From: Raillietiella orientalis
Lineage: Eukaryota
Direction: 5' to 3'
Assembly (NCBI GenBank): GCA_036172245.1
Contig: JAYWIR010000154.1
Location: 1-59,414 of the forward strand
Length of the DNA stretch: 59,414 bases
In this document: piece after piece, positions 1 through 58,720 of the stretch
Position numbering within the stretch: the first letter of the stretch is position 1
How the letters are laid out: every line of letters starts with the position of its first letter
Program-made: the position numbers and the translations under genes
Notes under the pieces: model-generated
What the model was told of the DNA's origin: nothing
Seen by the model: only the letters and a program-made list of their open reading frames with translations
Database searches by the model: none

Positions 1-2868
1 CCACGTGCTCCTGGCGGGACACTCCAGAGTGGTCCGCAGTGTGCAGCGGGCGTTGGGGCCGAATCGCAGGCGGTTCCAGTCCAGGGAAGTCTGGAGGTTC
101 AGCTTGGCCCACGTCGCAACGGATTCCAGCAGCCAGGCGGAGAAGTTGGCGGGGCTGCATACCGTCCAGCCCTTGTCTCTCACCAGGGCTTCCATGCGCC
201 CACGGAGAAGGCCGCATCTTCTGACCTTCCTTCTAGAGCACAGAAGGTACGACGCTGGTCCTTGCGTCCTGGACACACGGCTGGCGAGGATTCGGGCCGG
301 AAGGCACCAAGGGGTGCTCCATGACTTTGCTGCGATGGCGAGGGTGCGCCATCGCAGCTGTATGTCCAGGCGCTCCAGCGTCAGGAGGCCGAGACCGCCG
401 TCCCGAGGAGGAGCGCATAAGTCATCTAGAGGCACACGTGGCCTCCCGCTGCCCCAGAGGGCGATGCGGTGTAGGTCCTTGGTCCTCTTTTTAACATCAC
501 GGGGAACGGGGCACACAAAAAGCAGGGGGCGGAGGATGGGAGCCGCGAAGGCGTTCCACACGGCGGCCCGTTCCGGCAGAAGGAACTTGCCTTCCAGGAA
601 CGGGCCCATTGCCAACTCTACCTTCTGGAGACGAACTGACCAGGCTTCTGCGAGGCAGAAGTCCCCCAACGGGACACCCAGGTACTTCAGGTACCTGGCC
701 GTGGAGATCCCCAAGCGGATCCAGTCAGGCCGTCCGACCCATGTCGCACCCACCGGTACGACCGACGACTTCGCCTTGTTTACCCGCAGTCCAGTCCCAC
801 GACTTAGCACGTCGAAGAAATCCTCCACTGCGGCTGCCGGTGCGGACATGGGCAACATGAGCAGAAGATCGTCGGCGTATGCTGCAACGGCAAGCGTGCC
901 GGGGCACGAGCTGGGCAGGGCAGCCAAAGTCACCCTGTACGCTCTCAGCACCAACTCAAAGTAGGTGCTGAAGAGCAGGGGACTGAGGCTATCGGCCTGC
1001 CGTATGCCTCGCCGCATTGGCACGCCGTACACCTGTTGGCTGGAAAAGACGATGTTCACAATGGCATTGCGCCAGCATGAGCGCAGGTAGGAGAGAAGGG
1101 AGGGTGGGAAGCCCATGCGACCCAGGAGCTTCAACAGTAGCTCCTGGTCTACGCAGTCGAACGCCTTGTGGAGATCGACCGCGATCGCTAGGGCTCCCTT
1201 CCCAGCCCGGGTATCCATTCCCAGCCCAGCTGGCGGTCCCAAAGTGGGGTTGCCAATTTTTCCCCCTGTGTCGTTCAGGCAGCGCTGCACATGGAACCAT
1301 GTGCTCGCGAAGAACACGTTGGCATCCATACTTTGCCCGGGAACAGCGTACTTCTGCTCCGGGCTAATTATGGAGTCTGCCACCTGTCCTAGACGCGAAG
1401 CCCACAGTCCAGCGATCAGCTTGGCGTCCGTATTCACGATTGTGATCGGACGCCAATTGCCCAAGGATCTCAGGTCTCCTCCCTTCGGGAGGAACCTCAC
1501 ACGGGCTGACCGAAACGAGGCGGGAACGTCGCCTTCGTCTCGGATCAGCCCGGTCAACTGAAGCACCAGGGGTGCCAGCTCTGCCGCGAAACATTGAAAG
1601 AATTCCGCAGGCAAACCGTCCTCCCCTGGTACCTTTCGCCTCTTGAGCCTTTGAATACCGGCGAGAATTTCACCGGTAGAAAAAGGCTCATCGAAGCTGA
1701 TCTTCTCCTCCTCCCCTATTTCCGGCGCTCCATCCGGGAGCAGGAGCCGCGAGGCGTTCCGCTCTGGGGGTGCCCTAGCGTAGAGGGAGGAGTAGTAACG
1801 TCGCACGAGGTGCCTGTTCGCGGGTGCGCCGGATCGCTCCCGGCCCTGGTCGTCCAGGAAGCTGGCCGACCCGGATTGCCAGGCTTGGCGTTCGGCCCCG
1901 GCTCGATATTCCGCTAGGCGACGGACATTCGGGGTCCTCTCGCACCTGCGGGCCTGTAGATAAGCCCGATGGTTCCGAGCTCCCTCCCCGAATCCGGGGG
2001 GCAGGCGGTGCAGGGGAAACTCCTCGCAGAACTCGCGGACCGAGGCCTTGAAGAGGTACCAGTCTTGGAGACTGCGGAGGGTGACGCCTCTCAGGAATTC
2101 GCGAAGGTGTTCTTTCGCACCTGAGAGCAGCGTCCAGTTCCCAGGCAGCCGCCACGCCCTGGACGGGGGTCCTTTGTCGCGCGGGCAAACCTCGGCGATG
2201 ATCCTGGAATGGTCCGACAGCGTCGACGCAACTTTTCCCCGTTTGCCGACCCGTGAGCACAGGTCGACATCCACGAAGAAGTGGTCGATGCTGCGGTCCA
2301 TTCCCTCCGCGTCTGCCAACAAGTTGAGCGTGCGCATGGCAGCGCACAACTCGTTGGCCGTGCGTTCTTGTGCTTCGTGCTCACCTGACAGCAGACGGAG
2401 ATTGAAGTCTCCAGCTATCATCTGTGCCTTCCGCACATTCGCGTCGGCCAGCTAATCGCGCTTCAGGGTTTCCAGCAGCCTGGTACGGTCGCTGTATCCC
2501 CCTTTTCCGCTCGGGGCGTACACGTTCGTGACGATCAATTCGATCGAGTCGCACCAGCTGAGAATCAGCTGACCGACCCGACCGTCGTCATCAAAGCGTA
2601 CGCCCTTCACGGCACCGTCCATGGCCGGCTTGACGAAGAACGCGACCCCGCAGTTGTTGCGGGCGCCGCATCGCCAATACAGTCGACCCCCCGCGATCGT
2701 CTCGATCTCCTGGACGTCTGCCGAGGTGATCACGTGGATCTCCTGCAGCAGCGCCAGGTCGAAGTCACGCAGGGTGTCGGCCGTATCACGTCTGTTGCCG
2801 TCGTCGCGCAGCCCGTTGACGTTCCTACTGGCCACTCGGATTTGACGGCGACAGGCGAGCCCAGGTGT
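1..2868 (-). pseudogene. S1 ORF2 (APE endonuclease + RT), disrupted, runs off the window
   Basis: ORF 2452..2835 (NVNG, LQE, GVAF, NVYAP); RT motifs at about 600-1650. Confidence 0.88.
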
Positions 2869-4620
2869 TATTCCTGGGAAATCGGCTGTGCGGCGTCCGC
2901 CACCTGTTGGGGCGGGACGCTAGGTGGAGGAGGAGGGACAGGTGCCTCTAGCACCTGGCCACCCTCTTCCATCGGTGACGGAGCGTCGGGCGGTTCACCC
3001 TCAGGTGGGATCGCGCCTACCTGCTGGCCCTCCTCCATAGGGGTGGGATCCTCAGGGTCCGCGACGGCAGGAGGGATTTCGCCTCCCTGCTCACCCTCCT
3101 CCATGGGAGTGTCCTGCTCGACGGCTTCCGCTCGTGGGAGCTCCCCCTCCGGGATTCCCACGCTACCGGCGACTTCCTGCTTCTCCTCCTCGCTTGTGGA
3201 GGGGAGGTGCTTCCTCGACTTTTGGGACTTGTGTCCCGTCTTCCGGGGGGGTGCCTCCGAGGAGGAGGATGCACTTCCGGCCCCCAGGTCGCACTCACCT
3301 GCGGGGGCCTTCTTCGGCGGAGCCGGCCTTCGCACGGCCTTGCTAGAGGGGTTCTCACGCTCAGCCAGCGTAACCGCGAGCTCCTCCGCCGCCTTCACGA
3401 AGGCGGCGTCCTCGCCGGCGGCGAGCGCGTCGCGCGTGTCACCCTCTGTGCAAACAGAGGGTTCGCCGTCGCGAATCTCGGGCGCGGCGGAAACGGCAAG
3501 GGGAGGCTCGTCGCACCGGGTGGCAGCCTCGGGAACGCTGATGCGCTCCAGTGCTACCGAGCACTCGCATGGAGTTTTAGATCGCGGACCAGGTTTTTTC
3601 GCCTTCGCGACCGACTTTTTCTCCGCCTTCTCTTGTGAACCCTTTTTGGGTTCTTTTCTGGCCTTTCCGAGCGTCCATCCTTCTTCCTCGCCCGCGTCTT
3701 TCGCGGTTTTTTCCGCTCCCGCCTGATTTGGAGGAGGAGGAGAAGGCTGCTGGGGCCGGCAATTCTCGCGATGAGGTCTTTCGACCTTATTCATCTTTAT
3801 CACCTGTGCCTTTTTGGCAGCAAGTGGCACAGGGGTGGGGCGTTTAGAGCACACACGACGGACGTGTCCCTTTTCTTCGCACAAGTGGCACTCGATATTC
3901 GGGCACCGCCTGCGCACATGCCCTACTGCATTGCAGTAGCCACAATCGAGGGGGCTTCCCCACGTACCAGAGGTCGACGGGCTCCTTCCCGACCTCCAGT
4001 TTGTGGGGTAACCCAGCACCCTCGTTCACAGTGACACGCGCTGCTGCCTGGCCACCAAAGAGGCTGTTATAGCCGTCAAAAATGGTTGGCTTTGGCCACA
4101 GCGCGTGCACATCTCCGTATTTTTTCAATTCCGCGTCCACCGCAGAGCGCGTCATGCGTTTCGTGATCCCCGTTAGATGGACCACTACGGAGCGGTCCAT
4201 GCTAACGGGTAGGATCTTTCGGCCAGCCACATTCAGCGGGGTGTTTATGAGGCGCTGCTCTAGGGCTACGTCTTTGCAGACGACCTCCACGCGTTGCCCC
4301 CCGCTGAGTACGGCGAGGCCGTCAAGATCCTCCTCACGCACGGGGAATTCCTGTAGTGCCTTGCTAAAGGCACGCGCGGTGCGACCGTCGAACATGTTTC
4401 CTACCTTATGAACCAGGGATGGTTTATATCCGGAGGCCCTGTAGGCCGCTTGCTCAGCCAAGGTTATCGCGCTCTGCGCGGCGACCATGGCGCTCCAGCT
4501 CCTCGTCTTGGGCGACGAGGGCGATTCCGGGACGGATGCTTCTGATTCTGTAGGTCGTGGGGGGGGGCTAGCCTCCCTTACGCCTACCTCCATCGTAATG
4601 TCCTCTGGCAGCGATGCCAT
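2868..4620 (-). pseudogene. S1 ORF1 (RRM-like, two CCHC knuckles, acidic/Pro tail), frameshift near 3955
   Basis: ORFs 3844..4704 (MASLPEDITMEVG...WYVGKP) and 2868..4019 (CGYCNAVGHVRRRC, CHLCEEKGHVRRVC ... PISQE*). Confidence 0.88.
2935..3125 (-). repeat. Three ~66-bp (22-aa) coding repeats (PMEEG...) in the ORF1 tail; also at ~47410-47590 and ~52150-52260
   Basis: TPMEEGEQGGEIPP / TPMEEGQQVGAIPP / SPMEEGGQVLEAP. Confidence 0.7.
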
Positions 4621-4696
4621 CGGACAACAACGATGTGAAAAAGCACACACTGAACCAAAAAAAACCGCTTTCCGCTGCTCGTTCGCAAAGCGCCGG

Positions 4697-4716
4697 AAAA
4701 ACACGTCCGCTCTCGA
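4697..4716 (-). promoter_or_regulatory. Conserved 5'-terminal motif (GAGAGC)GGAYG(TGTTTT), candidate internal promoter element
   Basis: Also at ~11100-11114(-), 19851-19861(-), 41685-41699(-), 45852-45863(+), each about 75-90 nt upstream of an ORF1 ATG. Confidence 0.55.
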
Positions 4717-4721
4717 GGAGA

Positions 4722-7625
4722 GGGATTTGGGGAGGGGTCGCGTAACGAAAGGTGCTATTTTCAGGCCCGACGTTACGCGAGAACCCTTGACATGCGCAGG
4801 TTAGCAGAGTATCGAGCGGGAGCCGAGAGGCAAGCCTGGCAATCCGAGTCGGCCAGCATGTTGGACGACCAGGGCCGGGAGCACTCAGTTCCCGCTCAGA
4901 AACCTGGATAGTGAGTAAATTTTACTCCTCCCTGTACGCCAGGGCGCCTCCGGAGCAGGATGTCTCACGACTGCTGCTTCCGGAAGGTGCTCCAGCAATT
5001 GGGGAGGAGGAGAAAAGAAGCCTTGACCAGCCTTTTACGATGGACGAGATCCTCTCGTCCATTGGAAAGCTCAAGAGGCGGAAGGCTCCAGGGGAGGACG
5101 GCCTGCCCGCGGAGTTTTACCAAACTTTCGCGGCTGAGCTTACCACCCTGGTACAGCAACTCACCTTGCTGATTCGCGAAACAGGTGACGTTCCCACCTC
5201 GTTTCGTTCAGCAAAGGTGCGGCTCCTCCCTAAGGGAGGAGACCTTAGGAGCATGAACAACTGGCGTCCCATCACAATAGTGAATGCGGAAGCCAAGTTG
5301 CTAGCCAAGCTGTGGCAGAGCGCCTGGCACGGGTCGCAAACATCTTCATCAGCTCGGAACAGACATATGCTGTTCCCGGGCGAAGTATGGAGGCCAACCT
5401 GTTCCACACTTCCACATGGTTAGAGCTCTAACAAGGAAGGAGCATAATAAGCAACCGGAATTCCGGTGCGTCCGTCGGTGGGGGACGAGATGGTCAGAGG
5501 GGAGAGGAGCCCTCGTGGTCGCAGTCGATTTGCATAAAGCATTCGATTGCGTCGACCAGAATCTCCTTTTGGAGCTTCTGGAACGCTTGGGATTCCCGGC
5601 CTCTTTGCTGGCCTACATGCGCTTCAGCTGGCGCGACACGCTCATTGATGTTTTTTTTAGTGGATCCACCGTGTACGGCGTACCTGTGCGCGCGGCATAC
5701 GGCAGGGAGACAGCCTCAGCCCCTTGCTCTTCAGCGCCTATTTCGAATTGGTGCTGAGAGCGTACAGGGAGACTCTGGCGCACCTGCCGTGCGATTGTCC
5801 CGGTACGCCTTCAATTTCGGCGTACGCGGACGACCTTCTGCTGCTGCTGCCTATATCCACCCCGGCTGCGGCGGTCAAGGAGTTCTTCGACCTGCTGAGT
5901 CGGGGAACAGGACTGACGGTGAACAGGGCGAAGTCGTCCGTAATGCCAGTCGGAGCGGCGTGGGCAGGGCAGCAGGATTGGGTCCGTTTGGGGATCCCCA
6001 CGGTGAGGTACTTCAAGTAACTGGGTGTGCCGTTGGGGGACTACTCCCCTGCGGAAGCGTGGTCGGGCTGCCTTCAGAAGTCTCAGGCGGCGATCGGCCC
6101 GTTCCAGGACGGCAGGTGCTACCTGCAGAAACGGGCCGCGGCGTGAAACGCGTTTGCGGCCTCCCTCCTTCGCCCCTTGCTTTTTGTTTGTTCCCCCTTA
6201 GCGGAGTCAAAGAAGAGGACGAAGGACCTCCTGAGGATGGCCCATTGGGACAGAGGGCGGCCCCGAGTCCGTCTTTCGGACTTGTGCGCTCCTCTTCGGG
6301 ATAGTGGTCTGGGCCTCCTGACGTTGGAGCGGCTGGAGCTACAGCTCCAGTTCCGAGTTGTTGCCTTTATGGCAGAAAATTGGTGCACTCTTGGTGCCTC
6401 CCTGCACATCTTCTCTTCGAGCGGGCCAATGGCAATGCGGGACTGTCGTCCTACTTTGCACTCCGAAGCCCCATCTGCCACTGCTGACTTCATCTTCGGA
6501 GGGCGGCCAAGCTCGTGAAGAACAACTCGGCGCGGATTCTCGTACGCTTCGCGAACGGTCCTGCCTGGTTGCAGGAAACCGTCCGTACGTGGGCGATGAT
6601 TCAGGAGCAGAGCCCGCAACACGAGCGAACAGCTCTGTTTGGGCCGCATGCCCACCGCACGCTCCGAGAAATCGAGTATCCCCGAAGGAGAGCGTTGGCA
6701 CAAAAAAACTCCCTTGCTGCGGTACTGCCTACCCTACGATGACATCTGGGCAGCGACGTCACGGCACAATGGGAGGTTACTGTCAAGATCGCCAGCAGGG
6801 CAAAGAAGATCGGGGATTGGAGAACGGATCAGCTCACCAACGATGCTACCCCGAGGACCACCCCAAATGGACTGTCGCGCTGGGAAGAGCTACTGGATCT
6901 TCCAGAGGAACATCTCGAGTGGCCCCCGGTGCTCATGGACTCGCGCACCCTCCCCATGAAGTGGGAACAGTCGGCACTGCTGGTGTTGAATTTGGGGCTT
7001 CCTTGCAACGCCCGCCGACACCACTGCACGCGGGGGGCTGTCAACCCTAATTGTGTCAGGTGCGGGGAGAGGGAATACCTCCCCCACCTGTTAGTGGATT
7101 GGGTTGCCCTCCGTCCCTTGTGGAAACGCTTTGCCGCAGCCCTGGGGATCCCCGAAGGCAACCCCAGAGACACCTTGCGCCCCCTTTTCGTCCGTGACGC
7201 CCTGCCTCCAGTGGCCTCGCTTGCAGCCCTGTGCTGCCTACGCGGGATCGTCGTGGCATGGAGCAAAGCGACGGGAGGATCCAGCGACAGGGATGCCAAC
7301 GTGTATGCCGCCCGTTTCCTCAGGATGGCGACGCGATGGCACCACCTGTAACCACACACGCAGAAACAGCTTGCCGGCATCCTCCAGAGTATGACGGACC
7401 CTCCCAGGAGACTGTGATCCCTTCTCGCTTCCTCCCTGATATTTGTGTATGTTTTGTTTTGTTTTTGTTTCGTTTTCCCTCTTCTCTGCTGCCGAGGTGG
7501 ACCGCGCCGGTCTGCGCACCGGTAGCCCGGAAAGCTATACCTTTCCAGGGCGTCGCTGGACTACTGGTCCAGTCACAGATTGTATAGGTTTATCCGTGAG
7601 AATAAACGTCCCGGCGCACCCGGGT
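4722..7625 (+). mobile_element. S2: 3' part of an element (ORF2 linker, RT, CCHC, 3'UTR, intact 3' end)
   Basis: Starts GFGEGSRNER; KAPGEDG, WRPIT, DLHKAFD, YADD (~5823), CVRCGEREYLPHLLVD; stop ~7415; AATAAA plus hairpin 7601-7625. Confidence 0.92.
7601..7625 (+). terminator. Conserved 3'-terminal AATAAA plus hairpin (one of nine copies)
   Basis: Consensus AATAAACGCCCCGG-N5-CCGGGTG; also 7978-8003(-), 15879-15904(+), 21942-21967(+), 36669-36694(-), 42947-42972(-), 47851-47876(-), 49914-49939(-), 54702-54727(-). Confidence 0.8.
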
Positions 7626-7629
7626 TTCA

Positions 7630-27622: not shown

Positions 27623-27635
27623 GAAAGGGGAACAT

Positions 27636-29422: not shown

Positions 29423-29591
29423 CCTGGCAGCTGGTCTTGCTGCACGGGACCACTGCAGGTCTTCCGCCGCGATCTCATTGGCGCTTGTTTTGTAGTTTCG
29501 TCTGGAAACTTCCCCTCTCCTGGCACACACGAGCAACATTAACTGATTAAGTTTCCGAGCGCACATTACTTTGAGCTGCAAAGCAATTTCA

Positions 29592-39600: not shown

Positions 39601-41699
39601 AGGGTAAGGAAGAAATTTCTCCTTGCCTTTGCCCTTAGCGCGTCGCGGCCGCTTGGGGCGTACACGTTGGTAATGACCAGATCGATGGAGTCGGACTACC
39701 TGATGGTCAACTGCCCGACGGGACCGGCACTATCGAACCGTACACCCTTTGCCGCAGCCTTGACAGCTGGACGAAGCAGGAACGCGACATCGCAAGTTTT
39801 AATGGTGCCGCAACGCCACAGCAGCCGCCCACCCGAGATACGCTCGATCTGCGTTGCTTGATCTGCGGAGATCAAGTATATCTCTTGCAGCAGCATCTGG
39901 TCTAACGATGCCAAGGTGTAGGCCACGTCTCGTCTCTTGCCGTCGTCGCCTAGCCCGTTGACGTTCCAAGAGGCCATTCGCAGACGGCGGTAAGAAGTGA
40001 TTCCCGGCATTAAGGCTGGAAACGTGGCGTTGCAGCACCTGTCAGGGGACAGGTAGGAGGGACGAGTAAGGGGACCGCGTCCATCTCAGGCACTTGAAGC
40101 ACCTGGGACTCTACCCTTTCCCTACCTCTCGAGGAGAGTCCCCGGAGTTCCCCACTTTATTCGCACGCTCGCTTCCCTCAATTATCTCTCCCTTTTCCAC
40201 GGACGGGATTATTTTGCGGCTAGCCTTTTTCGTGCGAATGGCCTTTGGGCGGGAGACCGCAATGCCACAGGCTGTGTTTTCCGCCTCTGCGTCAGACTTC
40301 GGAATCTCCGACTTCTTGATCGAGGTCGGACGCCCTAAGGCCTTTTTCGTGGATTTAAGGGGACGCTGCAAGGACGCAACGAACTCCTCCGCTGCTCGCT
40401 CGAAGGCGACGTCGTTGAGCATGCGTTCAACGACGGACCCCACCGCCGGGTCGATAGCCTCCGGCATTAATTTGCCGGAGGGCTGAAAGTCGGCAGCGAC
40501 GAGTGCAATTTTGCCGCTCTTTTCGAACGCAGGAATGCGGTTCATGACGACAGAGCAGCGTTTGATAATTTCTCGACGCGGCAAACTCTCGTTGCGTTTG
40601 GCGACATTTTTTTTAGCTTCCTTGAGGCTTTTCTGCCTCTTGGATTTTACTACCTGGCATTGAGGTTCCTGGCCGTTCTCCTCGACCTTGTCCGAGTTTT
40701 CCAAGATCTCGGAGCCTACCTTCACCTGGGGAACGATAGTTGTTTTTCGAGCGGCGGCTATCTCTCGCGCTGCCTGAACTTCGCCACGCGCTTCTTCGCA
40801 TTCCGTGCGGAAGCGACGCGGAGTTCATTTTGCGGGCACACTGGAAGAGTGTGCCCGGGTTGCTTGCACTGCTTGCACTGCAAGTGGCGGCTTTTTTTTT
40901 TCAGGTAACCTGAAGTGCTGCAATGCCCGCAGAAATGCGGCTTACCGACATACCAGATGTCTACGGGTTCGCCCTTGACCTCCAGCTTGTTTGGTAGGGA
41001 GCAACCTTCGCGGACCGTGATGCGCGCGGAAGCCATACCGCAATTCATTAGATCGTACTCCCAATACGGAATCGGCCTTCTCCACAACGCGTGGACGGTT
41101 CCTAATTTAATTAATTCCTTTCGGACAGCTTCTTTGGCCATCCGGAAGGTGATTTCGAGGAGGTGGATCACGATAGATCTATCCACGGTGATCGGGAGGA
41201 GCCGGCGATTCCCTAAAGGAACAGGTGTACGGAGCAGACGCTGGGCAAGACTTGCTTCTTTGCAAATCACCTCAACGTACTGTCCACCACTCCTGATGGT
41301 CATCGCCAAGAGCTCCTTCTGGGGTACTTTGAGGGACTGCATCGCTTTCGAGAAAGCGCGTTCACTCTCAAAGGAGTAAAGGTTGCCTACCTTGTAGAGT
41401 AGAGGAAGATTGTACTTCTCCTCCAGGTGGGCTTTCAATTCTGCCGCAGCCGCTTGCGTTGACGCCGCAGCCACGGAACTCAGCTTCTCCCTAGCGAGGG
41501 AGTCGCTTCTGTGGGGCGGTTGCCCCCACATCCATTGATTTAGGAGGCGACATAGACGTCGTCCCATCCTTAACATTGGTGATGGTCCCAGGCATTGCTG
41601 CCTAGCCACCACCGAATCCGTTGGCACATTAAGAAAGAAAAGAAAAATCTAAAACGAAAAACGCTCAAGAGCGAAACTAAAAGCCGTCCGCTCTCGCTC
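36665..41699 (-). mobile_element. S17: element with both termini (internal deletion near 37600-37690), nested antisense in S16
   Basis: 5' GAGCGAGAGCGGACG 41699-41685; ORF1 ATG 41595 to TAA 40012-40010; ORF2 40010 to ~36891 (WNVNG, GDFN, IDH, DLHKAFD, RQGD, YADD); 3' motif 36669-36694. Confidence 0.92.
40008..40055 (-). promoter_or_regulatory. ORF1/ORF2 translational coupling signal: hairpin plus TAATG stop-start overlap
   Basis: ACCTGTC-CCCT-GACAGGT stem (40037-40054), 24-nt spacer, TAATG at 40012-40008; equivalents at five other junctions. Confidence 0.6.
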
Positions 41700-42942: not shown

Positions 42943-45849
42943 TTTTCTCCCGGTCACGCCGGTGCGTTTATTAAAAAACACTTTACATTTGCGGTACTAG
43001 GCCCCGCTACGGCCAATATTTCATGGGTCCATCCAGAAATCCGGTTCTCAGGCCAGCCTGTCCTCCTCGGCAGCGGAGGGGATAGGGGGTAAAACAAAAA
43101 GAAAAATAAATGAAATAACAAAAAGAAACTATTTGATAGGCCGGATAGGAATCACAACCCGCTATAGGAAGAGACTATGCTTTCCTGGATGCCCTCGAGG
43201 TCCCTCGTCATAGCTCCCAGATGGGACCAGCCGATCGCGATTCGCAGGCATCGACTACCGTGTACGATGAGATCCCTGTCGCTGCTTCCTCTGTTGGCTG
43301 CGCTCCACGCGGTCACAATCCCTCGGAGGCAGCAAAGTGCTGCCAGGGCTGAGGCTGGTGTCAAGGCGTGTCGCAGGAAGAGGAGCCTCATAACGTCTCT
43401 GATGGTGCTGCCTACGGGCACTGAAAGGTTCGTTGAAAGACGTTCCCACAAGGGCCGGAGGGCAGCGCAGTCCACTAACAGATGGGGGAGTGATTCCTTC
43501 TCCCTGTACACTGCACAGATCGGATGAACATACCCCCACGTCCAGTGTTGGCGGCGCCCGTTGCAAGGAAGACTTCAGTGCAACAACAACAGCGCCGTTT
43601 CCTGCCACTTTAGGGGGAGGATAAATGAATCAATGAACGTCGGGGGCGACTCTAGGTCATACATCGGGATGCCAAGCAGCTCGCCCCATCTCCGTAGTGT
43701 ATGCGGGTTAACTCTTGGGGTCGAGGTTTCAACCAGATCTTTCATGGTCCACCCAGTCAGATCCTTCTCTTTGCCCGCTATCCGCAGGAGACTTGCCATC
43801 TAGGATTCCGGATATTTTGGAGCGCCCTCCGTAGGAAGGGTAACGCCGTGGCCAGTGGGGTCGTCTCCGCCCAAGTTCTTCTGGCGGGACACACGTTCAT
43901 GTTCCGCAGCGTGCAGCGGGTGTAGATGCCGGTACGCAGGCCGTTGCAGGATTCTTCACTGATATTGTTTATCTTTGCCCACGTTCCAACTGTTTTTTCC
44001 AGCCATGCGCTAGAGTTGGCGGGGCTGCAGGTCATCCACGCTTTCTCCTTTGCCAGAGTGGCCATGCGTCCCAGGAGAACTACGCACCTTCTTATTTTCC
44101 GGCAGGGGCACAGATGAAAAGACGCGAGTCCTTCAGTCCCGGACACACGTCTGGCAAGAAGGTGGGCTGGAACGCACCAAGGGGTGTTCCACATTTTCGC
44201 TGCGATGGCTAGAGTGCCCCACCGCAGCTGTGTTTCCATTCGCTACATCGTCAGGACGCTAAGACCTCCGTCCCGATGTGGAGCGCACAAATACTTTAAA
44301 GGCACACGAGGCCTTTCGCCGCATCTCAGGGCGATGCGTAGGAGGTCCTTTGTTCTTTTTTTCAGTTCACGGTAACGGTGCAAACAAAAAGCAGAGGGCG
44401 AAGAAGGGGAGCCGCGAACGCGTTCCACACCGCGGTCCGTTCCGGCAAGTGAAGCTTGCCTTCCAGGAACGGGCCGATCGCTGACTCCACTTTTTGGAGA
44501 CAACCTGACCAGGCTTTCGACTAGCAGTAGTCCCCCAATGGAACTTCGAGGTACTTCAAGTACCTCCCCGTGGGGAACCCCAAGCGAATCCTGTCAGGCC
44601 GTCCAACCCACGTCGCACCAGCGGCTACCACCGATGACGTCGCCTCATTTACCCGTAGTCCAGTCCCGCGACTTAGCAGATCGAAGAAATCCTCGTCTGC
44701 GTGTGCCGGGGCGGTCATGGGCAAAAGGAGCAAAAGACAATCGGCGTAAGCCGCTACGGCCGGCGTACCTGGACACGAGCTTGGCAGGGCATCCAATGTC
44801 ACCCTGTATGCTCTCAGCACCAGTTTGAAATAGCTGCTAAAGAGCAGGGAAATCAGGCTGTCGCTCTGCCAGATGTTACGCCTCACCAGCATGCCGAACA
44901 CGTGCTGTCCTCTGAAAAACAAGTTATTGAACGCATTGCCCCAGCAGGCGCGCAGGTAAGCCAGTGAAGTGTCCGGGAAGCCCATGCGAACCAGGAGCCT
45001 CAGAAGGAGTTCCTGGTCCACGCAATCGAACGCTTTGTGCAGATCGTCTGCGATCGCTAGAGCTTCCTTTTCTTCCCGGTCGTCCCTTACTTGCTGCGCT
45101 GGCACTCATTAATCAGGTTTGTCTACATTCCGTTCTTTTTCCAAAGTTTTCTCGCGTTGCAAATGGAACCATGTGCTGGCGAAGAACAGGTTCGCTTCTA
45201 TGCTTCGTCCGGGAACAGCGTATGTCTGTTCCGGGCTGACGAAGCTGTCAACTACCTGTCCCAGTCGCGTAGCGCACAGTCCAGCCAGCAGCTTGGCGTC
45301 CGTGTTCACAATCGTGAATGGACGCCAGTTGCATAATTTTCTGAGGTCTTCTCCCTTAGGAAGGAGCCTACATCTGGCTGACCGGAACGAGGCGGGAACA
45401 TCGCCTCTGTTTCGGATCAGACTTGTTAATTGGAGCACCAGGGGGATCAGCTCTGCCGCGAAGCTCTGAAAGAACTCCGCCGGCAGGCCGTCCTCCCGTG
45501 GCGCCTTACGCCTCTTGAGCCTTTTAATAGCAGTGATAATTTCACCGGTCGTAAAAGGCTCTTCGAGGCTTTCTTTCTTCTCCTTCCTATGGCCGGGGCT
45601 CCATCTGGGAGCAAGCGCCGCGAGACGTCCCACTTCGCAGGTTCCCTGGCGTAATCGGAGGAGTGAAATCCACGCACAAGGCGACGCATCGATGACGGGT
45701 GCGAGTATTCCTGGTCCTGGTCGTCCAGCACGCTGGGCGGCCTGGATTGCCAGGCTTGACGCTCGGCCCCGGCTTTGTACCTGGCCAAGCGACGGATGTC
45801 AGCGGTCCTCGCGAAACGACGGGCGTGCAAGTACGCCCTTTTGTTACGA
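42943..45849 (-). mobile_element. S19: 3' part of an element (linker, RT, CCHC, intact 3' end)
   Basis: ORFs 45109..45633, 44521..45105, 43778..44239, 43152..43511; terminal motif 42947-42972. Confidence 0.92.
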
Positions 45850-47846
45850 AAGGACGTGTTTTTCCTTTGCTCTGTCAACAAGTACCGGGAAGCGGTTTCT
45901 TCTTGGGAAGTGTGTGTTTTTTCACATCGTAGGTGTCCGATGGCATAGCTGCCAGAGGACATTACGATGGAGGTGGGCATGGGGAAGGCTAGTCCCCCCC
46001 ACGCCCTACTGTATCAGGGGCATCCGTTTCGGAATCATCCCTGGCAACGCCGAGGACGTGGAGCGCCATGGTGGCCGCGTCGAGCGCGGAAACCTTGTCG
46101 GAGCAAGCGGCCTACAGGGCCTCCGGCTATAAACCATCTCTGGTTTATAAGGTAGGACCCCTGTTCGATGGTCGCACTTCCCGTGCACTTAGTAGGGCAC
46201 TGCAGGATTTCCCTGTTCGAGAGGAGGATCTTGACGGCCTCTCCGTACTCAGCGGGGGGCAGCGCGTGGAGGTCGTCTGCAAAGACGTAGCCTTAACACA
46301 GCGCCTGATAAACACCCCGCTGAATGCGGATGGTTGGAAAATCCTATCGGTTAGCATGGACCGCTCCGTAGTGGTCCATCTAACCGGAATCACAAATCGG
46401 ATGACGCGCTCGACGTTCAATTCCGAGTTGATGAAATACGGAGAGGTACACACGTTGTGGCCAAGGCCCACCATCTTCGAAGGCTTTCATAGCCATTTCG
46501 GAGGTCAGGCTGCAGCGCGTGTCACTGTCAATGAGAATGCTGGGTTGCCCCACAAACTGGAGGTCGCGAAGGAATCCGTCGACCTCTTGTACGTGGGGAA
46601 ACCCCGCTTTTGTGGCTACTGCAATGCAGTAGGGCACTTGCGCAAGCGGTGCCCGTACATTAAGTGCCACTTGTGCGGGGTTAAGGGACACGTGCGTCAT
46701 GTGAGCCCTAAACTCTCCACCCCGGTGTCATCTGCTGCCAAAAAGGCGTTGGCCAAAAAAATGAACAAGGTCGAAAGACCTAAGCGAAAAACTGGCCGGC
46801 CTCAGCCGCCATCTCCTCTTCTTCTCACCCAGGCGTCGGAGGATAAAGCCGCAAAAGACGCGGGAGTGGAGGAGGGATGGCACCTGGTAAAGGCCAGGAA
46901 GGAGAAACAAGTGGTGAAAGAACCACTGAAGAAAACGGAGAAAAAGAACACGGCCGGCAAAAAGAATGAAGCCGCGCCGCTGTCAAAAAAACTCCGCGAG
47001 TGCTTGGTAGCACTGGATCGCGTGAGCGTTCCTGAGGCTGCCACCCGGGCCGACGAGCCTCCCCTCGCGGTTTCCACCACGCTCGAGGTTCCACAAGCGC
47101 GCGCCGACGGCGAGGACGCCGCCTTAGCGAAGGCGACGGAGGAGCTCGCGGTCACGCTGGCCGAGCGTGAGAACCCCCCACGCAAGGCCGTGCGCAGGCC
47201 GGCTCCGTCAAAGAAGGCCCACGGAGGTGAGTTCGACCTGGGGGCCGGAAGTGCATCCTCCTCCTCGGAGGCACCCCCCCGAAAGACGGGACGTAAATCC
47301 CAAAAACCGAGGAGGCGCCTCCCCTCCACGAGCGAGGAGGAGAAGCCGGAAGCCGACGCCAGCGTGTGAAACCCGGAGGTAAAATTCCTATGCACGGAAG
47401 CCGTCGAGCAGACCACTCCCATAAAGGAGGTTGAACAGGGGGCCAAAGTCCTCCCTGTAGTCGCCGAACCTGAACAGCCCGCCCCCATGGAGGAGTGCGA
47501 ACAGGGAGGCGCGACCCAACCTGAGGGTGAACCGGCCGACGCGCCGTTACCCATGGAGGAGGGCGACCAGGTACCTTCAGCACCTGACCCTCCCCCTCTA
47601 CCTAGCGTCCCGCCCCAACAGGTATAGGACGTCGGACAGCCAATTTCCCAGGAATAACACCTGGGCTCGCCTGTCGCCGTCGGATCCGCGTGGGCAGTTG
47701 GAACGTCAACTGGCTGCGCGACGACGGCAACAGAAGAGATAACGCCGACACCCTGCATGACTTCGACCTGGCCCTGCTGCAGGAGATCCACGTGATCACC
47801 GCGGCAGACGTCCAGGAGATCGCAACGATCGCTGGGGGGCGGTTGT
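45850..47846 (+). mobile_element. S20: 5'UTR, ORF1 (45940-47657) and start of the ORF2 EN; close relative of S1
   Basis: GGACGTGTTTTT at 45852; ORF 46068..47369 (CGYCNAVGHLRKRC); WNVN..LLQEIH..AGGRL. Confidence 0.92.
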
Positions 47847-49880
47847 TTATCACTTGGGTGCGCTGGGGCGTTTATTGTAATCTATCTGGGAACAGGGTTC
47901 CTGGACAAAGGGGAAAACAAGAGACGAAGGGGGTGGGATCTTGGACATCGAGGTCGGTATGCCGAAAGTCCGGAACGGAAAAGAAAAGACCACAAATACA
48001 CTACTATAGAAAAATAAAAGAAAAATATGGTGGGCAGGGGACAGGGGTCTTTGGTGAGTCCCTTCCTTCCTTTCAAAACCGGCGATGGATGCCGGCGATC
48101 TCTCTTCTTACGTCCTGTGGCAGATGGGCCCACTCGGCAGCCGACGACGTGTTTGTGCTGGCTAATCCGGTGGGCTGACGAAGGATGGCCAGCTCCTCCA
48201 ACTCTCGGTGGGCCTTGTCGATGGCGCGGGTGCAACACACGGCTGCAACGACCGCACCCAAAGACAGGCCGCCTGGCGGGAAGAAGCGGCGCATCAAGTC
48301 CCTCGCGGTGTCCCTCTTGTGAAGGAAAGCTGAGGCCAGCCTCCGCCAGAGTCCCAGAAGGGCACCGCAGTCCAGGAGCAGGTGCGGGAGCGTTTCCACT
48401 TCCCCGCACCGCTTACAGTTTGGGGAGACAACTTTCCCGGAAACACGGTTCGTCGATGGTTGGAGTGAAAACCCCAATGCACCAGCATGATGACGTCCTA
48501 CTTCCACGAAAGGGGGAACACCGAAGTGATCAAACACGAGGGAGGGACCACAAGTTCTTCGGGGGGCACACTCAAGTGTTCACTCCACCGAAGGAGTCCC
48601 TTCGGTATGTGGCGAGGCGTGGCGGCATCTGCCAGCTCGCAAGTCCTCCAGCCGCCAATAGGTCGGGTTGTTCCTGCGATGGTGCAGGCGACCTCCCATC
48701 TCGCCGGATCGCAGCTGTCATCTCTTTCCCTGAGGGCTGACAGCGCATCGGCGAGGGGCGTGAGGCCAGGCGAGTCCACTTCTCTTGGCTGTTGCACACT
48801 TCATCCGCCGTGCAGTACGGGCAGAGGTGAGCGCAACGGAGTTCCAGGAGGGAAACATCCTGGTGCTTTGCCCAGCCATGCAACGGTTCCGGCCGCCAGG
48901 CTTAAAAGTTCGTTGGGCGGCAGGAGATCGATTCCTGGGGTTCCTGGAGCCGGCACAGCGGTTTCAAGGGGAAACCGAAGCTTCGCGTGGCGCGCTAAGT
49001 GTGGGGCCGCAGCGACAGAAGTCCATCGCTGCCTGCGCAGCGCCGCAGAAGCAGGCGTGCGGAAAGGTTGTGCACGAAAGGTTGACAAACAGGGCCAACA
49101 TCCGAAGCAGTACCTGCAGCTCGATAGTCTCCAGCGTCAGGATTCGTAAACCAGTATCCCGACACGGTGCCGCCAAGTCTTTGAGGCGTATCCTGGACCT
49201 CGCAGGTCATCACAGAGCGTTCCTCAACAGGCTTTGCGCATGGAGCTTGGCAGATCAGGGGGGCGGGCAAACAAAGAGCAAGGGGCGCAAGAGGGGGCAA
49301 CGAAGGTGTTTCATATCCTGGCCCGCTCCGGCAGGACGAACCTGCCATAGTGGAACGGGCTCAGGGCATTCGAAGCCTTCCGAAGGCAGTCCGACCACAC
49401 TTCCACCGGGCTGATGTTCCCCAGCGGAACGCTTAGATATTGCATGGAGGAAGCGGTCAAGATCCCCAGGCGGATCCAGTCGGACTGTCGCTCCCACGAC
49501 GAACCAATAGTTACGATCACGCTCTTGCTCCGCTTTACGCTCATGCACGCTCCCCGTCGAATCAGCTCGAAGAAATCCTCGAGACTGGGCGCCGATGTGG
49601 TCATGGGTAAGAGGAGAAGCAGGTCGTCAGCATAGGCCGCCACGGACGGCGTTCCTGGACAACAGCTCGGCAGGTTGGTCAGCGTCAGCCTATACGCCCT
49701 CAGCACCAACTCAAAGAAGATGCTGAAGAGCAACGGGCTTAAGCTGTCGCCCTGCCTGATGCCCCACCGCACCGGCACGCCGTACACGTGGCAGCCGCAA
49801 AAAGAGATGAATATGAGCTCGTGGCGCCAGCAAGCGCGCAAATACGCCACGAGGTGCATCGGGAGACGGAGACGTTCCAG
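47847..49880 (-). mobile_element. S21: 3' part of a subfamily C-like element (RT to intact 3' end)
   Basis: ORF 49311..49883 (RQGD, YADD); CKRCGEVETLPHLLLDC; terminal motif 47851-47876. Confidence 0.9.
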
Positions 49881-49910
49881 CACCTGTCAAGGGACAGGTG
49901 AGGCGGACGT

Positions 49911-50560: not shown

Positions 50561-50564
50561 GTGG

Positions 50565-53185
50565 GAAGCTTTTCGTTGGTTGTCTGGTGTATGGAAGCAC
50601 CAATGTCCCATGGATGAAATGCCTGAGGACATCGCGATGGAAGTTGAAGGAGGAGAAGCGACATGCTTTCCGACACCAATAAAAGTGGGGGCATCCGCTC
50701 CCACGGAATCCGGGGAACGTGCCCCATCGGAATCGGGAGCAATCCCCCCTTCGCGACCCTCTTCGCCATTGGCAAGGAGTTGGAGTGACGTCGTTGCTGC
50801 ACCATCCCCGGATGCAGTAGCGGAGCAGACTGCCTACAAGGACAGCGGCTACAAGCCGTCTCTGATCTATAAGGTAGGCAGTGTGTTTGATGAAAAAATT
50901 GCACGCTCCTTCGAAATGGAGCTGCAAAGGTTGAACGTGAGGGAGGAAGACCTTGAAGGCCTATCCCTCCTTAGTGGAGGCCAGCGAGTTGAGCTGACAT
51001 GCAAAGAGGCAAGTCTGGCTCAGCGACTGCTGAACACCCCTCTTACGGTGGACGGCCGCAGGATCTTCCCTGTGACGGAGGACCGCTCTGTCATGGTCCA
51101 CCTCACGGGCGTATCACTCCGAATGGACAAAACCAGAGTCCATGAGGAGTTGTCGATGCATAGTAGTGTGCACGTGTATTTGGCCAAACCCAATGTCTTC
51201 CGAACGTACGGAAGGCTATTCAGTGGGATGGCCGCAGCCGGCGTCAACCTACCAGAGAATGGTGAACTTCCCACAAATTGAATATCGGCGAAGAAAAAGT
51301 CGATGTTTGGTACGTGGGTAATTCCAACTATTGTGGCCATTGCGATGCTACAGGGCATCTAAGAAAGCGGTGCCCTAACATCCAATGCCACTTATGTGGA
51401 AATAAGGGCCACATCCGTAAGGTGTGCCCAAGGAGAGAAATCCCGTCCCCATTTGCTGCCAAAAAGGCAAAGGGGAAACGCACGGGAGAGACGCATACAC
51501 AGAAACAAGCTGTAAACACCCAGATGACAGTCACTAAGCCCCCACAGCAAACGTCGGTTGAGAACACTCCCGACGACGCTGATGACGGCGAAGGCTGGCA
51601 GACGGTACAGCCACGAAGAAAACCCGGGAGTCCCGAACGGAACGCGGTGAAAACAAAAACACAGCGTAAAAAACCGTGCCGCGAAAAGCTCCGCGCGTGT
51701 TTGGTAAAATTAGAAGGTGTGGAGGCAACCGATGTTGCCACCGGGGGAGCATTCTCCCCCCTCACGTCCGCCAAAGCAGCGACGGTCGATGGTGAACCCT
51801 CTGGCGAATCACAGGGGGAACCGCGCGCCGCGCTGGACGCGATCGAGGAGGCCGGCTCCCAGCAGGCGGTGGGAGAACTCACGGCTGAACTGCAAGGCCG
51901 TGAAAAGAACTCGCGAAAGGCGTTGCGAAGGCCGGTCGCGAGGAAGGCTCCGGAGGTAGGTGAGGCCGATCCGGACGTCGAAATTGCGTCCTCTTTAGCG
52001 GAGTCGCCACCAAAGAAGACGGGACGTAACTCTCAGAATCCCAGAAGGCGCATCCGGATCAATAAGGAGACGGAGGAACCATCCCCCGAGGAAGAAGCCG
52101 GCAGCGTGGGAGGCAAGGGTGGGAATATCTGATTCCCCGACACCGTGCAGCTAGCGACTTCCATGGAGGAGGATGCGCAGGTGGGTGAACTACTACTTCC
52201 TCTGCAAGGCCCCGACGACGAATCGTCCTCCATGGAGGAGGGAGAAGCGGTGCGCGACACACCCCCTTCTCCTAGCGTCCCGCTTGACAAGGTGGCAGGA
52301 GCCCCATTGCCAATTTCCCAGGATTAACACCTGGACTCGTCTGTCGCCGTAGGATACGCGTAGCCTGCTGGAACGCCAACGGGCTGCGCGATGATGGCAA
52401 CAGGCGGGACACGGCCGACACCCCGCGTGACTTCGACCTGGCCCTCCCGCAGGAGATCCATGTGATCACCGCAAGGAATGCCCAGGAGATCGAGAGGGGG
52501 GTCGTCTGTTTTGGCAATGCGGCTCTTGCAACACCTGTGACGTCGCGTTTTTTATGAACCCAGCAATCGCTTCCTTCTTCCAGGACAGTCGGGTTGGCCA
52601 GCTTATCCTTAGGTGGTCCGACTCGATCGACCTTGTCGTGACTAATGTGTGCGCTACGAGCGGAGGACGCGGGTACGGTGAACGTTCCCGGTTCCTCGGA
52701 ACCCTGAAGCGCGAATGGCCGGCGGATAGAAACGTACGCAAGGCACATCTTATCGGTGGGGATTTCAACATCCGCCTGCTCTCAAATGTGCCTTGCAGGC
52801 AAAAAGACGCAAACAACGAGTTGTGCGCCGCTATGCGTACGCGCAATTTGCTGGGGGACTTTCCGGAAATGGCCCAAAGCGTAGATCACGTCTTCCTTGA
52901 CGCCGACCTGTGCTTAAGGGTCCGCAGACTAGGCAAACTTACGTCGAAGCTATCGGACCACTACTGGCTGATAAGCGAGATTATGCCACGCGACAATCGA
53001 CCACTATCCAGGGTGTGGCGTATGCCAGGGGACTGGACGCATATCTCAGGTGCGGCGGAACATCTCCGTCAGTTCCTGAGAGGCGTCATCCTTTGCAACC
53101 TCGAAGGTTGGGACCACATGAAGGTCTCGGTCCGCGAGTTCAGCGAGGATTTTCCTTTGCACCGCCTGCCACGGGGATTTGGAGT
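50565..53185 (+). mobile_element. S23: ORF1 (50610-52327) and ORF2 EN up to GFG
   Basis: ORFs 50580..51281, 51278..52132 (CGHCDATGHLRKRC, CHLCGNKGHIRKVC), 52554..53297 (GGDFN, VDH, SDH). Confidence 0.92.
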
Positions 53186-53196
53186 TGTAACCAGGG

Positions 53197-54699
53197 TACC
53201 TTCCAGGAACGGGCGGATCGCCGTCTCGACTTTTTGGAGGCAGCTGCACCACGCTTCCGCTGCGGAAAAGTCCCCCAACGGCACACCAAGGTACTAAATG
53301 CACCTCGCAGTGGGGATCCCCAAACGGACCCAGTCCTGCTGCCCTGCCCACGCCGCACCAACTGGCACCACCGACGACTTCGCCCTGTTCACCGTAAGTC
53401 CGGACCCGCGGCTGAGCAGGTCGAAGAAATCTCCGACCGCCTTTGCCGGGGTGGACATTGGCAACAAGAGCAGAAGATCGTCGGCATAAACACTTACGGC
53501 GAGTGTGCCGCGGCATGAGCTGGCGGCCCCAATGTTGGGTTGCCGATTTTCCCTTCCCTTTCTTCTCTCTTCTCTGAGAATGCATCCAAGTGCTTGCGAA
53601 GAAGAGGTTGGCGTCCATACTTCGCCCGGTAACAGCATAGGTCTGCTCCGGGCTAGTTGTGGACTCTGCCACCTGCCCCAAACGCGAAGCCCATAGCCCT
53701 GCTAGCAACTTGGCGTCCGTGTTCACGATCGTGATCGGACGAAAGTTGTTCAATTACCTGAGGTTTCCCTCTTTCGGGAGGAGCCTCACTCTGGATGAAC
53801 GAAAAGAGGCGGGAACATCGCCTTCGTCTCGGATCAGCCTTGTCAACACGAGCACCACGGGGGCCAGATCTTGCGCGAAGCACTGAAAAAACTCCGCAGG
53901 CAAGCGGTCCTCTCCTAGCGCCTTAAGCCTCTTGATCCTTTTGATATCGGCGAGAAATTCTCAGAGAGTGAAAGGCTCGTCGAGGCTTACCGACTCCTCT
54001 TCCCCTATTGCGAGGGCACCATCCGGGAGCAAGCGCCAAGAGGCATCTTGGTCCGAAGGCGTCCTGACTTAGAGGGATGAATAAAATCTCCGCAGGAGAT
54101 GCCGTTATGACGCCGGAAACGAACATTCCCGGCCCTGGTCGTACAGCAAGCTGGCCGACCCGGATTGCTAGGCTTGGCGTTCGGCCCCAGCGCGGTACTC
54201 GGCCAAGCAACGCACATTAGGGGTTCTCTCGTAACGACGGGCCTCTAAATAGGCTCTATGGTTGTGAGGACCCTCGCCAAATCCGGGGGGCAGGCGATCC
54301 AGGGGGAACTGTTCGCAGAGCTCCCGGACCTAGGCCTCAAAAAGGAACCAATCCGAGAGACGCTGGAGCGTGACGCCTCTCAGAAATTTGCGAAGGTGTT
54401 CCTTCGCACCTTAGAGTCGCGTCCAGTCCCCCGGCAGACGCCAATATCTGGATGGCGGTCTTTTGTCGCGACGCCGCATCTCGAAAACTAACCGGGCATG
54501 GTTCAACAACCTCGACGCAACCCTCCCTCGTTTGCCGAACCGTGAAAACACGTGAACGTCGAGGTAGACGTGGTCGATGCTGCGGATTATTCCCTTCTCA
54601 CCCGCGAACAAGTTGCGCGCACGCATGGCGGCGCAAAACTCGTTCATCGCGTTCTCTTGTGTTTCAGGCTCACCTGTTAGCAGGCGGAGATTGAAATTT
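53197..54699 (-). mobile_element. S24: EN-linker-RT fragment with an internal deletion near 53520; paralog of S3
   Basis: ORF 54411..54647 (IDH), FRPIT, YADD in 53294..53638. Confidence 0.88.
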
Positions 54700-57600: not shown

Positions 57601-58720
57601 GAAACGTGCGGGCCTGCAGAAAGTCTCTACTGTTGGCCACGCTCTCTCCGAAAGCCCGTCGACGCCGGTGCAAGGGGAATTGGCAGCAGAACTCGCGGAC
57701 AGATCTTGTGAGATCGTTTCGGTCCGCAAGTTCTTGAATGGCAAAGCCTCGGAGGTGTGCACATGGATGCTTCTGAGCCTTTGGTTGGCTAAGCCAATCC
57801 GCCTGCATCCTCCAGTTTTGCAGCGGAGGCTTTCTTGCTGGCGGAAGGATCTCAAACTTCAACCTGTGGTGGTCAGAAAGCCTAGTCAACAATCTTCCTC
57901 TCCTACCCACACGCGAATTCAGGCTTTCATCGAGGAAAACGTGATCGAGCGATCTTTCCATTCCAGGTTCGCTGACCATCAAGTTGGCGGCGTGCACGGA
58001 CGCGCACATCTCGATGGGCAGCGCGCGCTCCCTCGGGCGGCTCCAATCGTCGGAGAGCAGGTGGACGTTGAAGACCCAAGCGACGAGGTGCGCCACTTAA
58101 AAGCCGGAGTTGTTGAGCCAGTGGTTCTGCACCTCACCAAAGAAAGCTACTTTTTCTTCGAGGTAGCGAGAGCCACACGGTGCGTAAACGTTCGTAACGA
58201 CGAGATCGATGGACTCGGACCACTTGATGACAAGCTGGCCTATCCGTCCGTCGTCATCGAAACGAACACTACGCACCGCTTCCGCCATTTTTCCTCTTAC
58301 GAGGAACGCGACGCCGCACGTGTGTGCGCCGCCGCACCGCCAATGTAGCGTTCCGCCTGCGCGCTCCTCGATTTCGGCTGCCTGCTCGTCAGAGATTACG
58401 TGAATCTCCTGCAGGAGCGCGAGGTCGAAGGGGCGCAGGGCGTTAACTACTAATCGCCTCTTCTCGTCGTTCTGTAGGCCGTTTACGTTCCAACACGTTA
58501 CGGACAGACGACGAGAAGACGCGATTCCCCGCATTACGGCTGGGAAGGTGGCGGCTTTTTGCTCGCTTTATCCGGCGAGCAGAGGCTAGCAGCACGACTG
58601 GCTGGAGGGGACGGTCGCCACCGTCCTCTGTCGCGCTGCATGCTTGTAATGCCTCCACGCCGGGCTGGACCCCGTCGGGTTCCGGGCTTCCACACTTTCA
58701 ACAACTAGTCTTGCCTCCGC
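54700..58720 (-). mobile_element. S25: subfamily C element with ORF1 tail, whole degenerate ORF2 (58534 to ~55010), 3'UTR and intact 3' end; paralog of S4
   Basis: ORFs 58097..58534 (CWNVNG, NVYAP), 57464..58096 (LDH, SDH), 55869..56813 (RQGD, YADD, KYLG); terminal motif 54702-54727. Confidence 0.93.

Follow-up and report, generated by a model that had tools for sequence, protein, structure and literature searches.

In the 59,414-nt contig JAYWIR010000154.1 of Raillietiella orientalis (assembly GCA_036172245.1, positions 1–59,414 of the forward strand), which was analysed as a whole and is referred to below as the window, we identified a lineage of a long interspersed element (LINE) that has lost the AUG codon of its second open reading frame (ORF2). 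Six copies of the element, named A–F, preserve the boundary between ORF1 and ORF2. The stop codon of ORF1 overlaps with an ATG in copies D, E, and F, and in copies A, B, and C the position of this ATG is occupied by ACA, which gives the pentanucleotide TAACA. As judged from the pattern of substitutions, the TAACA element kept making functional ORF2 protein over approximately 0.76 synonymous substitutions per site, and RNA folding predicted a stem-loop shortly downstream of the stop codon in every copy. The case appears to be one of stop–start coupling of a LINE ORF2, which is of a known kind, in a naturally AUG-less form with a conserved downstream stem-loop, and the data support this interpretation in part. 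How LINEs translate ORF2 from a bicistronic RNA is a long-standing question, and a natural lineage without the AUG, in which ORF2 is under selection and the stem-loop is kept, joins the coupling described for SART1 with the AUG tolerance of human L1.

The ORF1/ORF2 junctions

A sensitive blastn search of the window with five junction queries detected only six copies that keep the ORF1/ORF2 boundary (Table 1). Direct reading and alignment placed all six pentanucleotides at the positions given in an earlier first-pass annotation of this sequence, and the ORF2 peptides quoted there for copies D and E were also correct. ORF2 is in the −1 frame relative to ORF1, and its opening peptide is MPGITSYRRLRMASWN in copy D, MRGIASSRRLSVTCWN in copy E, and MRAIASSRCVAVTSWS in copy F, while the peptides read across the junction are TPGLACRRQIRVASRN in copy A, TPGLACRRRIRVGSWN in copy B, and TPGLVCRRRIRVACWN in copy C. 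Upstream of the junction, the ORF2 frame of copies A–F has open stretches of 17, 17, 13, 25, 11, and 64 codons, respectively. From the upstream stop codon to the NVNG endonuclease motif, the ORF2 frame of A, B, and C contains no ATG, which bears out the previous claim that no AUG precedes NVNG in the TAACA copies, and an alternative in-frame ATG was rejected as the start on this ground. In copy A, the NVNG and LQE motifs precede the first Met of ORF2, which occurs at approximately codon 85. Codon +11 is GTG in A and B and GTA in C.

The stop codon of ORF1 occupies the identical alignment column in all six copies despite the very variable ORF1 tail (38.6% identity between A and C), and the motif YTTYCCAG is kept just upstream of the stop in each of them. 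In copies A and B, the codon directly before ACA is ATA (2,871–2,873 and 47,652–47,654), which overlaps with the TAA as ATAA, a near-cognate mirror of the ATGA overlap. This ATAA overlap has no counterpart in copies C and D, both of which have TTA. The variable C-terminal tail of ORF1 (2,871–3,200 on the minus strand; 47,330–47,654 and 52,130–52,324 on the plus strand) is acidic and proline-rich, and the motif P-M-E-E-G recurs in it a variable number of times depending on the copy (three in A). The length of the tail varies, while the position of the stop relative to ORF2 is constant.

Common descent of the TAACA copies and selection on their ORF2

Phylogenetic trees were inferred from the first 294 codons of ORF2 by FastTree (on nucleotides and on protein) and by IQ-TREE with ultrafast bootstrap. 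The split separating copies A, B, C, and the fragment f22929 from copies D, E, and F was supported by values of 0.997 (FastTree, nucleotides), 0.987 (FastTree, protein), and 100 (IQ-TREE). Since the TAACA copies lie on one side of a supported split, TAACA is regarded as one state shared by descent. The first-pass annotation had described TAACA as the feature of a whole subfamily, and the tree agrees with this in that it shows one shared clade state, not three independent events. The window has a GC content of 56.6% and an observed/expected CpG ratio of 0.97, and the ratio was 0.97–1.10 across the window and in each copy, old repeat copies included. The undepleted CpG content speaks against decay by deamination of heavily methylated CpG sites in this part of the genome, and the derivation of ACA from an ACG start by CpG decay was rejected for this reason.

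The ratio of nonsynonymous to synonymous substitutions per site (dN/dS) was determined by Nei–Gojobori counting with 95% confidence intervals from codon bootstrap, and the identical alignments read in shifted frames served as control. For the ORF2 of A and C (284 codons), dN was 0.220 and dS was 0.756, resulting in a dN/dS of 0.29 (0.20–0.40), while the two shifted frames gave 1.17 and 1.36. The corresponding values were 0.113, 0.693, and 0.16 (0.07–0.34) for B and C (61 codons; shifted frames 1.45 and 0.93), and 0.077, 0.224, and 0.34 (0.15–0.80) for A and B (64 codons; shifted frames 1.10 and 0.95). The dN/dS of ORF1 was 0.54 between A and B and 0.48 between A and C. A comparison of dN/dS within the TAACA subfamily had been put forward in the first-pass annotation, and the ORF2 values of 0.16–0.34 versus approximately 1 in the shifted frames speak against neutral evolution of a non-autonomous lineage. 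As the A–C alignment takes in 284 of the 294 codons, the low ratio does not result from retaining conserved segments only. The proportions of nonsynonymous and synonymous differences (pN and pS) between A and C were 0.08 and 0.41, respectively, in codons 1–42, and from this constraint it follows that the codons separating ACA from the endonuclease core were themselves translated. Consequently, the purifying selection acting on ORF2 between the TAACA copies indicates that the AUG-less ORF2 was translated.

The A–C pS was even along ORF2 (0.35–0.61), and the sliding identity plot showed no isolated block at the junction. Both observations speak against the junction having passed recently from one lineage to another, and its recent conversion or recombination was rejected accordingly. 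Since the pS of 0.41 beside the junction matches that of the rest of the gene and no identity block was seen there, the junction is as old as the split between A and C.

A conserved stem-loop at the junction

RNAalifold analysis of the six junctions predicted a 29-pair stem-loop (hairpin 2, HP2; columns 51–123 of alignment A2) common to all copies. Its 5′ end is 8 nt downstream of the final base of the stop codon and 6 nt downstream of the AUG/ACA codon, and its apex lies over the WNVNG codons. This conserved stem-loop, as modelled, is a new finding that goes beyond the first-pass annotation. In the alignment, 83.9% of the HP2 cells were paired versus 31–53% when the 3′ partners were slid by 1–3 columns, and nine pairs were changed on both sides versus 0–3 in the slid controls. 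None of 500 shuffles reached the covariation score of HP2, and 3/500 contained as many doubly changed pairs. HP2 also folded alone in each copy, with free energies of −32.9 to −48.3 kcal/mol and z-scores of −0.5, −3.6, −6.1, −3.1, −6.2, and −1.9 for A–F, respectively. When the copies were scanned with 95-nt windows, no other part of B, C, or E was as stable as the windows at −10 to +10 from the stop, and the junction window ranked 23/304 in F, 106/614 in D, and 484/735 in A. For a place-blind control, copies A, C, D, E, and F were aligned over nt 1–792 of ORF2, and RNAalifold was run on 54 windows of 84 nt from this alignment. The windows at nt 1–84 and 13–96 were clear outliers with consensus energies of −33.7 and −29.5, followed by the stem-overlapping nt 25–108 (−13.9), while the remaining 51/54 windows gave −11.8 or weaker values.

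HP2 could be a by-product of coding for WNVNG, but this explanation was rejected, because a second LINE family in the window, which has LNVNG at the matching place, has no comparable structure: no stable stem-loop was found after its ORF2 start ATG at 27,622 (minus strand; z-score −0.75 with mononucleotide shuffles). A small hairpin (HP1), whose loop holds both the stop codon and the start position, lies directly upstream of HP2. A different pairing gives copy E an equal layout, and in copy D a similar hairpin occurs as a suboptimal fold. HP1 was rejected as a column-for-column covarying helix, since its register shifts by one nucleotide between A/B/C and E, and is considered a recurrent feature only.

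Proposed restart coupled to the termination of ORF1 and its alternatives

The fixed stop column, the distance between the stop and HP2, and the SART1-like anatomy together led us to read the module as a device of termination-coupled restart. A ribosome finishing ORF1 would meet HP2, whose base is 8 nt past the stop, and would be held there, as a ribosome with the stop codon in its A site would abut the stem at this distance. At the overlapping codon, some of the terminating ribosomes may resume translation in the −1 frame. This codon is AUG in lineages D, E, and F (UAAUG or UGAUG) and would have become ACA in the A/B/C lineage, where the translation of ORF2 would have continued from at or just before the ACA position. 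The expression of ORF2 would thus depend on the termination of ORF1. In copies A and B, the AUA directly before ACA is a near-cognate candidate for the starting codon, while C has UUA at this place. A start without AUG is conceivable if the post-termination ribosome could resume in the −1 frame with no standard start-codon recognition. A SART1-like restart that no longer requires AUG is the best reading of the junction, and we give it about an even chance. The broader proposition, that a natural, long-lived L1-like lineage translates its endonuclease/reverse transcriptase (RT) gene with neither an AUG nor a near-cognate start codon, is put forward tentatively.

Several points weigh against this interpretation. 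With two mismatches to AUG, ACA does not count as a near-cognate codon, and copy C lacks the AUA of A and B. The TAACA copies are three in number and all defective, and no intact master copy was seen in the window. The dN/dS values, with dS up to 0.76, come from a counting method and not from a likelihood model. HP2 is weak in copy A (z-score −0.5, rank 484/735) and moderate in D and F, it was scored on the same six sequences from which it was derived, its compensatory changes mostly divide A/B/C/D from E/F and therefore represent few independent events, and its RNAalifold covariation term is slightly unfavourable (+0.98). Just upstream of the start, the ORF2-frame peptide xFP[GA][ILV] is conserved across lineages, and a frame test based on the substitution pattern of the eight codons upstream of the junction did not tell the ORF1 and ORF2 frames apart. 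Furthermore, the AUG dependence of ORF2 in Zorro3, as presented in PMC1965478, implies that AUG independence is not general.

An unlikely alternative is that ORF2 is initiated internally at a non-AUG codon, independently of termination, with HP1 and HP2 acting as an internal ribosome entry site (IRES)-like or ribosome-positioning element. Kozak (1990) reportedly found initiation to be favoured by a hairpin placed a short way after a weak start, and the two-hairpin module is located exactly at the ORF2 start in four lineages, with AUA directly before ACA in A and B. IRES elements have been reported for mouse L1 according to PMC4091050. However, internal initiation leaves the fixed ORF1 stop at the start codon unexplained in all six copies, copy C has no near-cognate codon at position −1 or 0, and the comparison of the whole window with Rfam at gathering thresholds gave no family match.

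Fusion of ORF1 and ORF2 by a programmed −1 frameshift a little ahead of the ORF1 stop, stimulated by HP2, was judged to be quite unlikely. In that case, the ATG of D, E, and F would simply encode a Met inside the fusion protein, the change from ATG to ACA would be a plain Met-to-Thr replacement, and no unusual initiation would be needed. ORF2 indeed occupies the −1 frame, which every copy keeps open upstream of the junction, the upstream peptide conserved across lineages shows some changes that are synonymous in the ORF2 frame, and a strong stem-loop follows at a stimulator-like spacing, the rule for frameshift stimulators being 5–9 nt. The 8-nt spacing of HP2, however, counts from the stop codon, thus the A-site codon of a well-placed heptamer would be the stop itself. 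The first-pass annotation had noted the lack of a canonical slippery heptamer in the ORF1 frame, and inspection by eye likewise found no X XXY YYZ heptamer in this frame within the open −1 stretch of any copy, while the near-slippery C AAA AAG was present in E only (58,555–58,562, minus strand), approximately 20 nt upstream of the stop. The open stretches of 11–64 codons are at the chance level for this GC content (approximately 31 codons expected), and those of E and C amount to only 33–39 nt (11–13 codons). Moreover, the exact stop–start overlap in three deep lineages and the stop column shared by all six copies are needless for a frameshift, and the frame test did not separate the frames on the overlap. 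Thus, the fixed stop column, the position of HP2 8 nt downstream, and the absence of a heptamer make restart a better fit than −1 fusion. Of the two mechanisms offered in the first-pass annotation, AUG-independent restart has therefore gained ground and −1 fusion has become the less supported one, while the restart itself is what we infer from the anatomy of the junction.

It is improbable that the TAACA lineage does not translate ORF2 at all and consists of non-autonomous passengers or decay products, to which the selection signal is misattributed; in a variant of this explanation, the signal was inherited from ATG-bearing ancestors and the junction was then spread by recombination. The defects of all three TAACA copies, their small number in a single 59-kb window, and the presence of ATG-bearing relatives in the same cluster, which could supply ORF2 protein in trans, are compatible with it. 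The low dN/dS between the TAACA copies, set against approximately 1 in the shifted frames, contradicts this explanation, as does the pS near the junction, which equals that of the rest of the gene with no identity block there. Independent double changes from ATG to ACA in two lineages are very unlikely as well, CpG decay not being in operation. Finally, a spliced or trans-spliced RNA with YTTYCCAG as 3′ splice acceptor and an AUG from an upstream exon is highly improbable: although the motif is conserved in all six copies and donor-like sequences (GAG/GTAGGC in A and GAG/GTGGGC in B) follow the second ATG of ORF1, these donors are in phase 0 and, when joined to CAG/GAATAA, stay in the ORF1 frame into the TAA instead of entering ORF2, B has not kept the other candidate donor of A (GTAAGG), and YTTYCCAG is equally explained as the 5′ arm of HP1.

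Termination-coupled restart in known systems

SART1, the telomeric non-LTR (long terminal repeat) retrotransposon of Bombyx mori, belongs to a clade other than L1, and it differs in this respect from the family described here, which best matches L1 ORF2p and is known from its sequence alone. The UAAUG coupling of SART1 (Kojima et al., 2005) needs a downstream RNA structure, as described in PMC5972666 and PMC3894237. The likeness of the two elements lies in the stop–start overlap (UAAUG in D and E, UGAUG in F) and in the secondary structure, which is located downstream and not upstream of the restart site (PMC5972666), although in our case it is a predicted one. The copies A, B, and C differ from SART1 in having ACA for AUG, and thus UAACA in place of UAAUG.

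The translation of human L1 ORF2 (Alisch et al., 2006) is AUG-independent and requires the completion of the upstream ORF, according to PMC4091050 and PMC1965478. Human L1 resembles the present family in that its ORF2p is the best structural-database match of the ORF2 protein. In the same sources, however, human L1 has a 63-nt spacer and a natural ORF2 AUG, and its AUG independence was observed in engineered mutants, while here the ORFs overlap and the AUG is naturally absent. Zorro3, an L1-clade element of Candida albicans, is a two-ORF element with an APE endonuclease and an RT in which the ORF2 start was examined, but its ORFs do not overlap, and changing the ORF2 ATG to ACG decreased retrotransposition below 5%, which was as bad as a nonsense mutation (PMC1965478). 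This need for AUG runs counter to what would be expected from the TAACA lineage. Overlapping stop–start pentanucleotides with low-frequency restart occur in caliciviruses, influenza B, and the hypovirus CHV1 as well, but in these systems of the termination upstream ribosome-binding site (TURBS) type an upstream element pairs with 18S rRNA, as stated in PMC5972666, whereas the conserved structure found here is downstream.

A small search of open-access text revealed no natural AUG-less LINE ORF2. If translation with neither an AUG nor a near-cognate start codon proves true, the TAACA lineage would be the first case in nature to parallel the AUG-independent ORF2 translation engineered in human L1, and the junction would offer a compact RNA element for dissecting a poorly understood AUG-independent mechanism. 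The TAATG and TAACA copies, which belong to one family and share the hairpin module, represent paired natural variants for direct tests. For annotation, the practical consequence is that the lack of an ATG should not by default mark a LINE ORF2 as dead.

The element family and its relatives

The tblastn map showed that the window is a nested pile of diverged fragments of one L1-like non-LTR retrotransposon family on both strands. The fragments are 37–86% identical to copy A at the protein level, and many of them interrupt each other. Copy C, for example, is cut at approximately 53,185 by the reverse-oriented fragments at 53,189–54,698, and its ORF2 ends where this other insertion cuts in. Nineteen ORF2-bearing fragments were followed in addition to copy A. 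This nested cluster is similar to the self-targeting Zepp and Zepp-like L1 clusters of green-algal centromeres as these appear in PMC8226300, the likeness being one of pattern alone.

The six junction copies belong to one L1-like non-LTR retrotransposon family, in which ORF1 has putative CCHC knuckles and ORF2 encodes a putative APE-type endonuclease and an RT. The RT was recognized by Pfam RVT_1 (E 1.4e-19, 71.1 bits; cut-off 29.6), and the best structural-database match of the ORF2 protein was human L1 ORF2p (E 3e-37), while R2 proteins matched with 7e-16 or weaker E values. The N-terminal 155-residue piece of ORF2 gave an E value of 3.5e-5 with Pfam Exo_endo_phos at 24.1 bits, just below the cut-off of 24.5. 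The alignment begins at the N of NVNG, and both the NVNG and LQE motifs are visible in ORF2. Copy A has R for W in WNVNG. PF03372 and PF14529 are carried by more distant relatives. In the ORF1 of A, B, and C, two CX2CX4HX4C motifs were seen by eye, while Pfam zf-CCHC gave no match reaching E 0.01 on the ORF1 of A and B.

In the public protein sets, close relatives of the family were almost absent. An exhaustive HMMER protein search detected only P0002 (66%) and P0016 (70%), both from metagenome contigs shorter than 3 kb, and the next protein match after these two fragments was 33% identical. The nearest named proteins (28–33%) are from turtle, pseudoscorpion, and Closterium. Word-based protein searches detected one 66% relative of the RT part and no relative of the N-terminal piece of ORF2. 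A pattern scan of metagenomes yielded 18 loci, none of which (0/18) encodes the element by tblastn, and scans of prokaryote genome contigs and viral contigs revealed no further copies.

Table 1. Junctions, predicted hairpins, and element copies in the window
Feature	Coordinates	Strand	Remarks
Copy A junction, TAACA	2870–2866	−	ORF1 stop TAA at 2870–2868; ACA at 2868–2866 replaces the ORF2 AUG
Copy B junction, TAACA	47655–47659	+	
Copy C junction, TAACA	52325–52329	+	Preceding ORF2-frame codon TTA, versus ATA in A and B
Copy D junction, TAATG	40012–40008	−	Stop–start overlap
Copy E junction, TAATG	58536–58532	−	
Copy F junction, TGATG	35890–35894	+	
Copy A HP2 (predicted)	2787–2859	−	Weakened in copy A
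Copy B HP2 (predicted)	47666–47738	+	
Copy C HP2 (predicted)	52336–52408	+	
Copy D HP2 (predicted)	39929–40001	−	
Copy E HP2 (predicted)	58453–58525	−	
Copy F HP2 (predicted)	35901–35973	+	
Copy A HP1 (predicted)	2860–2878	−	Arms CCCAGG and CCUGGG; 7-nt loop AAUAACA holds the stop and ACA
Copy B HP1 (predicted)	47647–47665	+	Arms and loop as in copy A
Copy C HP1 (predicted)	52318–52334	+	5 bp
Copy A ORF1	2868–4620	−	ATG 4620–4618 to TAA 2870–2868; two CX2CX4HX4C knuckles (by eye); one frameshift near 3950–4025
Copy A ORF2 (putative APE-type endonuclease and RT)	1–2868	−	One in-frame stop in 973 codons; runs off the window
Copy B	45940–47848	+	ORF1 from ATG 45940, premature stops; ORF2 cut after approximately 81 codons
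Copy C	51266–53183	+	3′ part of ORF1 with one stop; ORF2 to approximately codon 294–311, one frameshift

Other features of the window

The 5′ untranslated regions (UTRs) of copy A (4,621–4,800, minus strand) and copy B (45,800–45,939, plus strand) can be aligned with each other, and both have a T-rich tract. The motif TTTCACATCG is common to them and lies approximately 20 nt before the ATG of ORF1. These shared features may belong to an internal promoter or to a signal at the 5′ end.

The second LINE family, located at 25,253–29,605 on the minus strand, is a distant one with approximately 25–27% identity to the ORF2 of copy A. On this strand, its ORF1 has a Pfam zf-CCHC match at 28,194–28,970, and its endonuclease and RT are found at 27,000–27,635 and 25,556–26,059, respectively. 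Its ORF1 stop precedes the ORF2 ATG at 27,622 by approximately 570 nt. Another such fragment is located at 30,766–33,135 (minus strand). A related GC-rich unit of 27 nt is tandemly repeated in two short arrays 5.6 kb apart, with 3.4 copies at 29,207–29,298 and 3.6 copies at 34,830–34,925.

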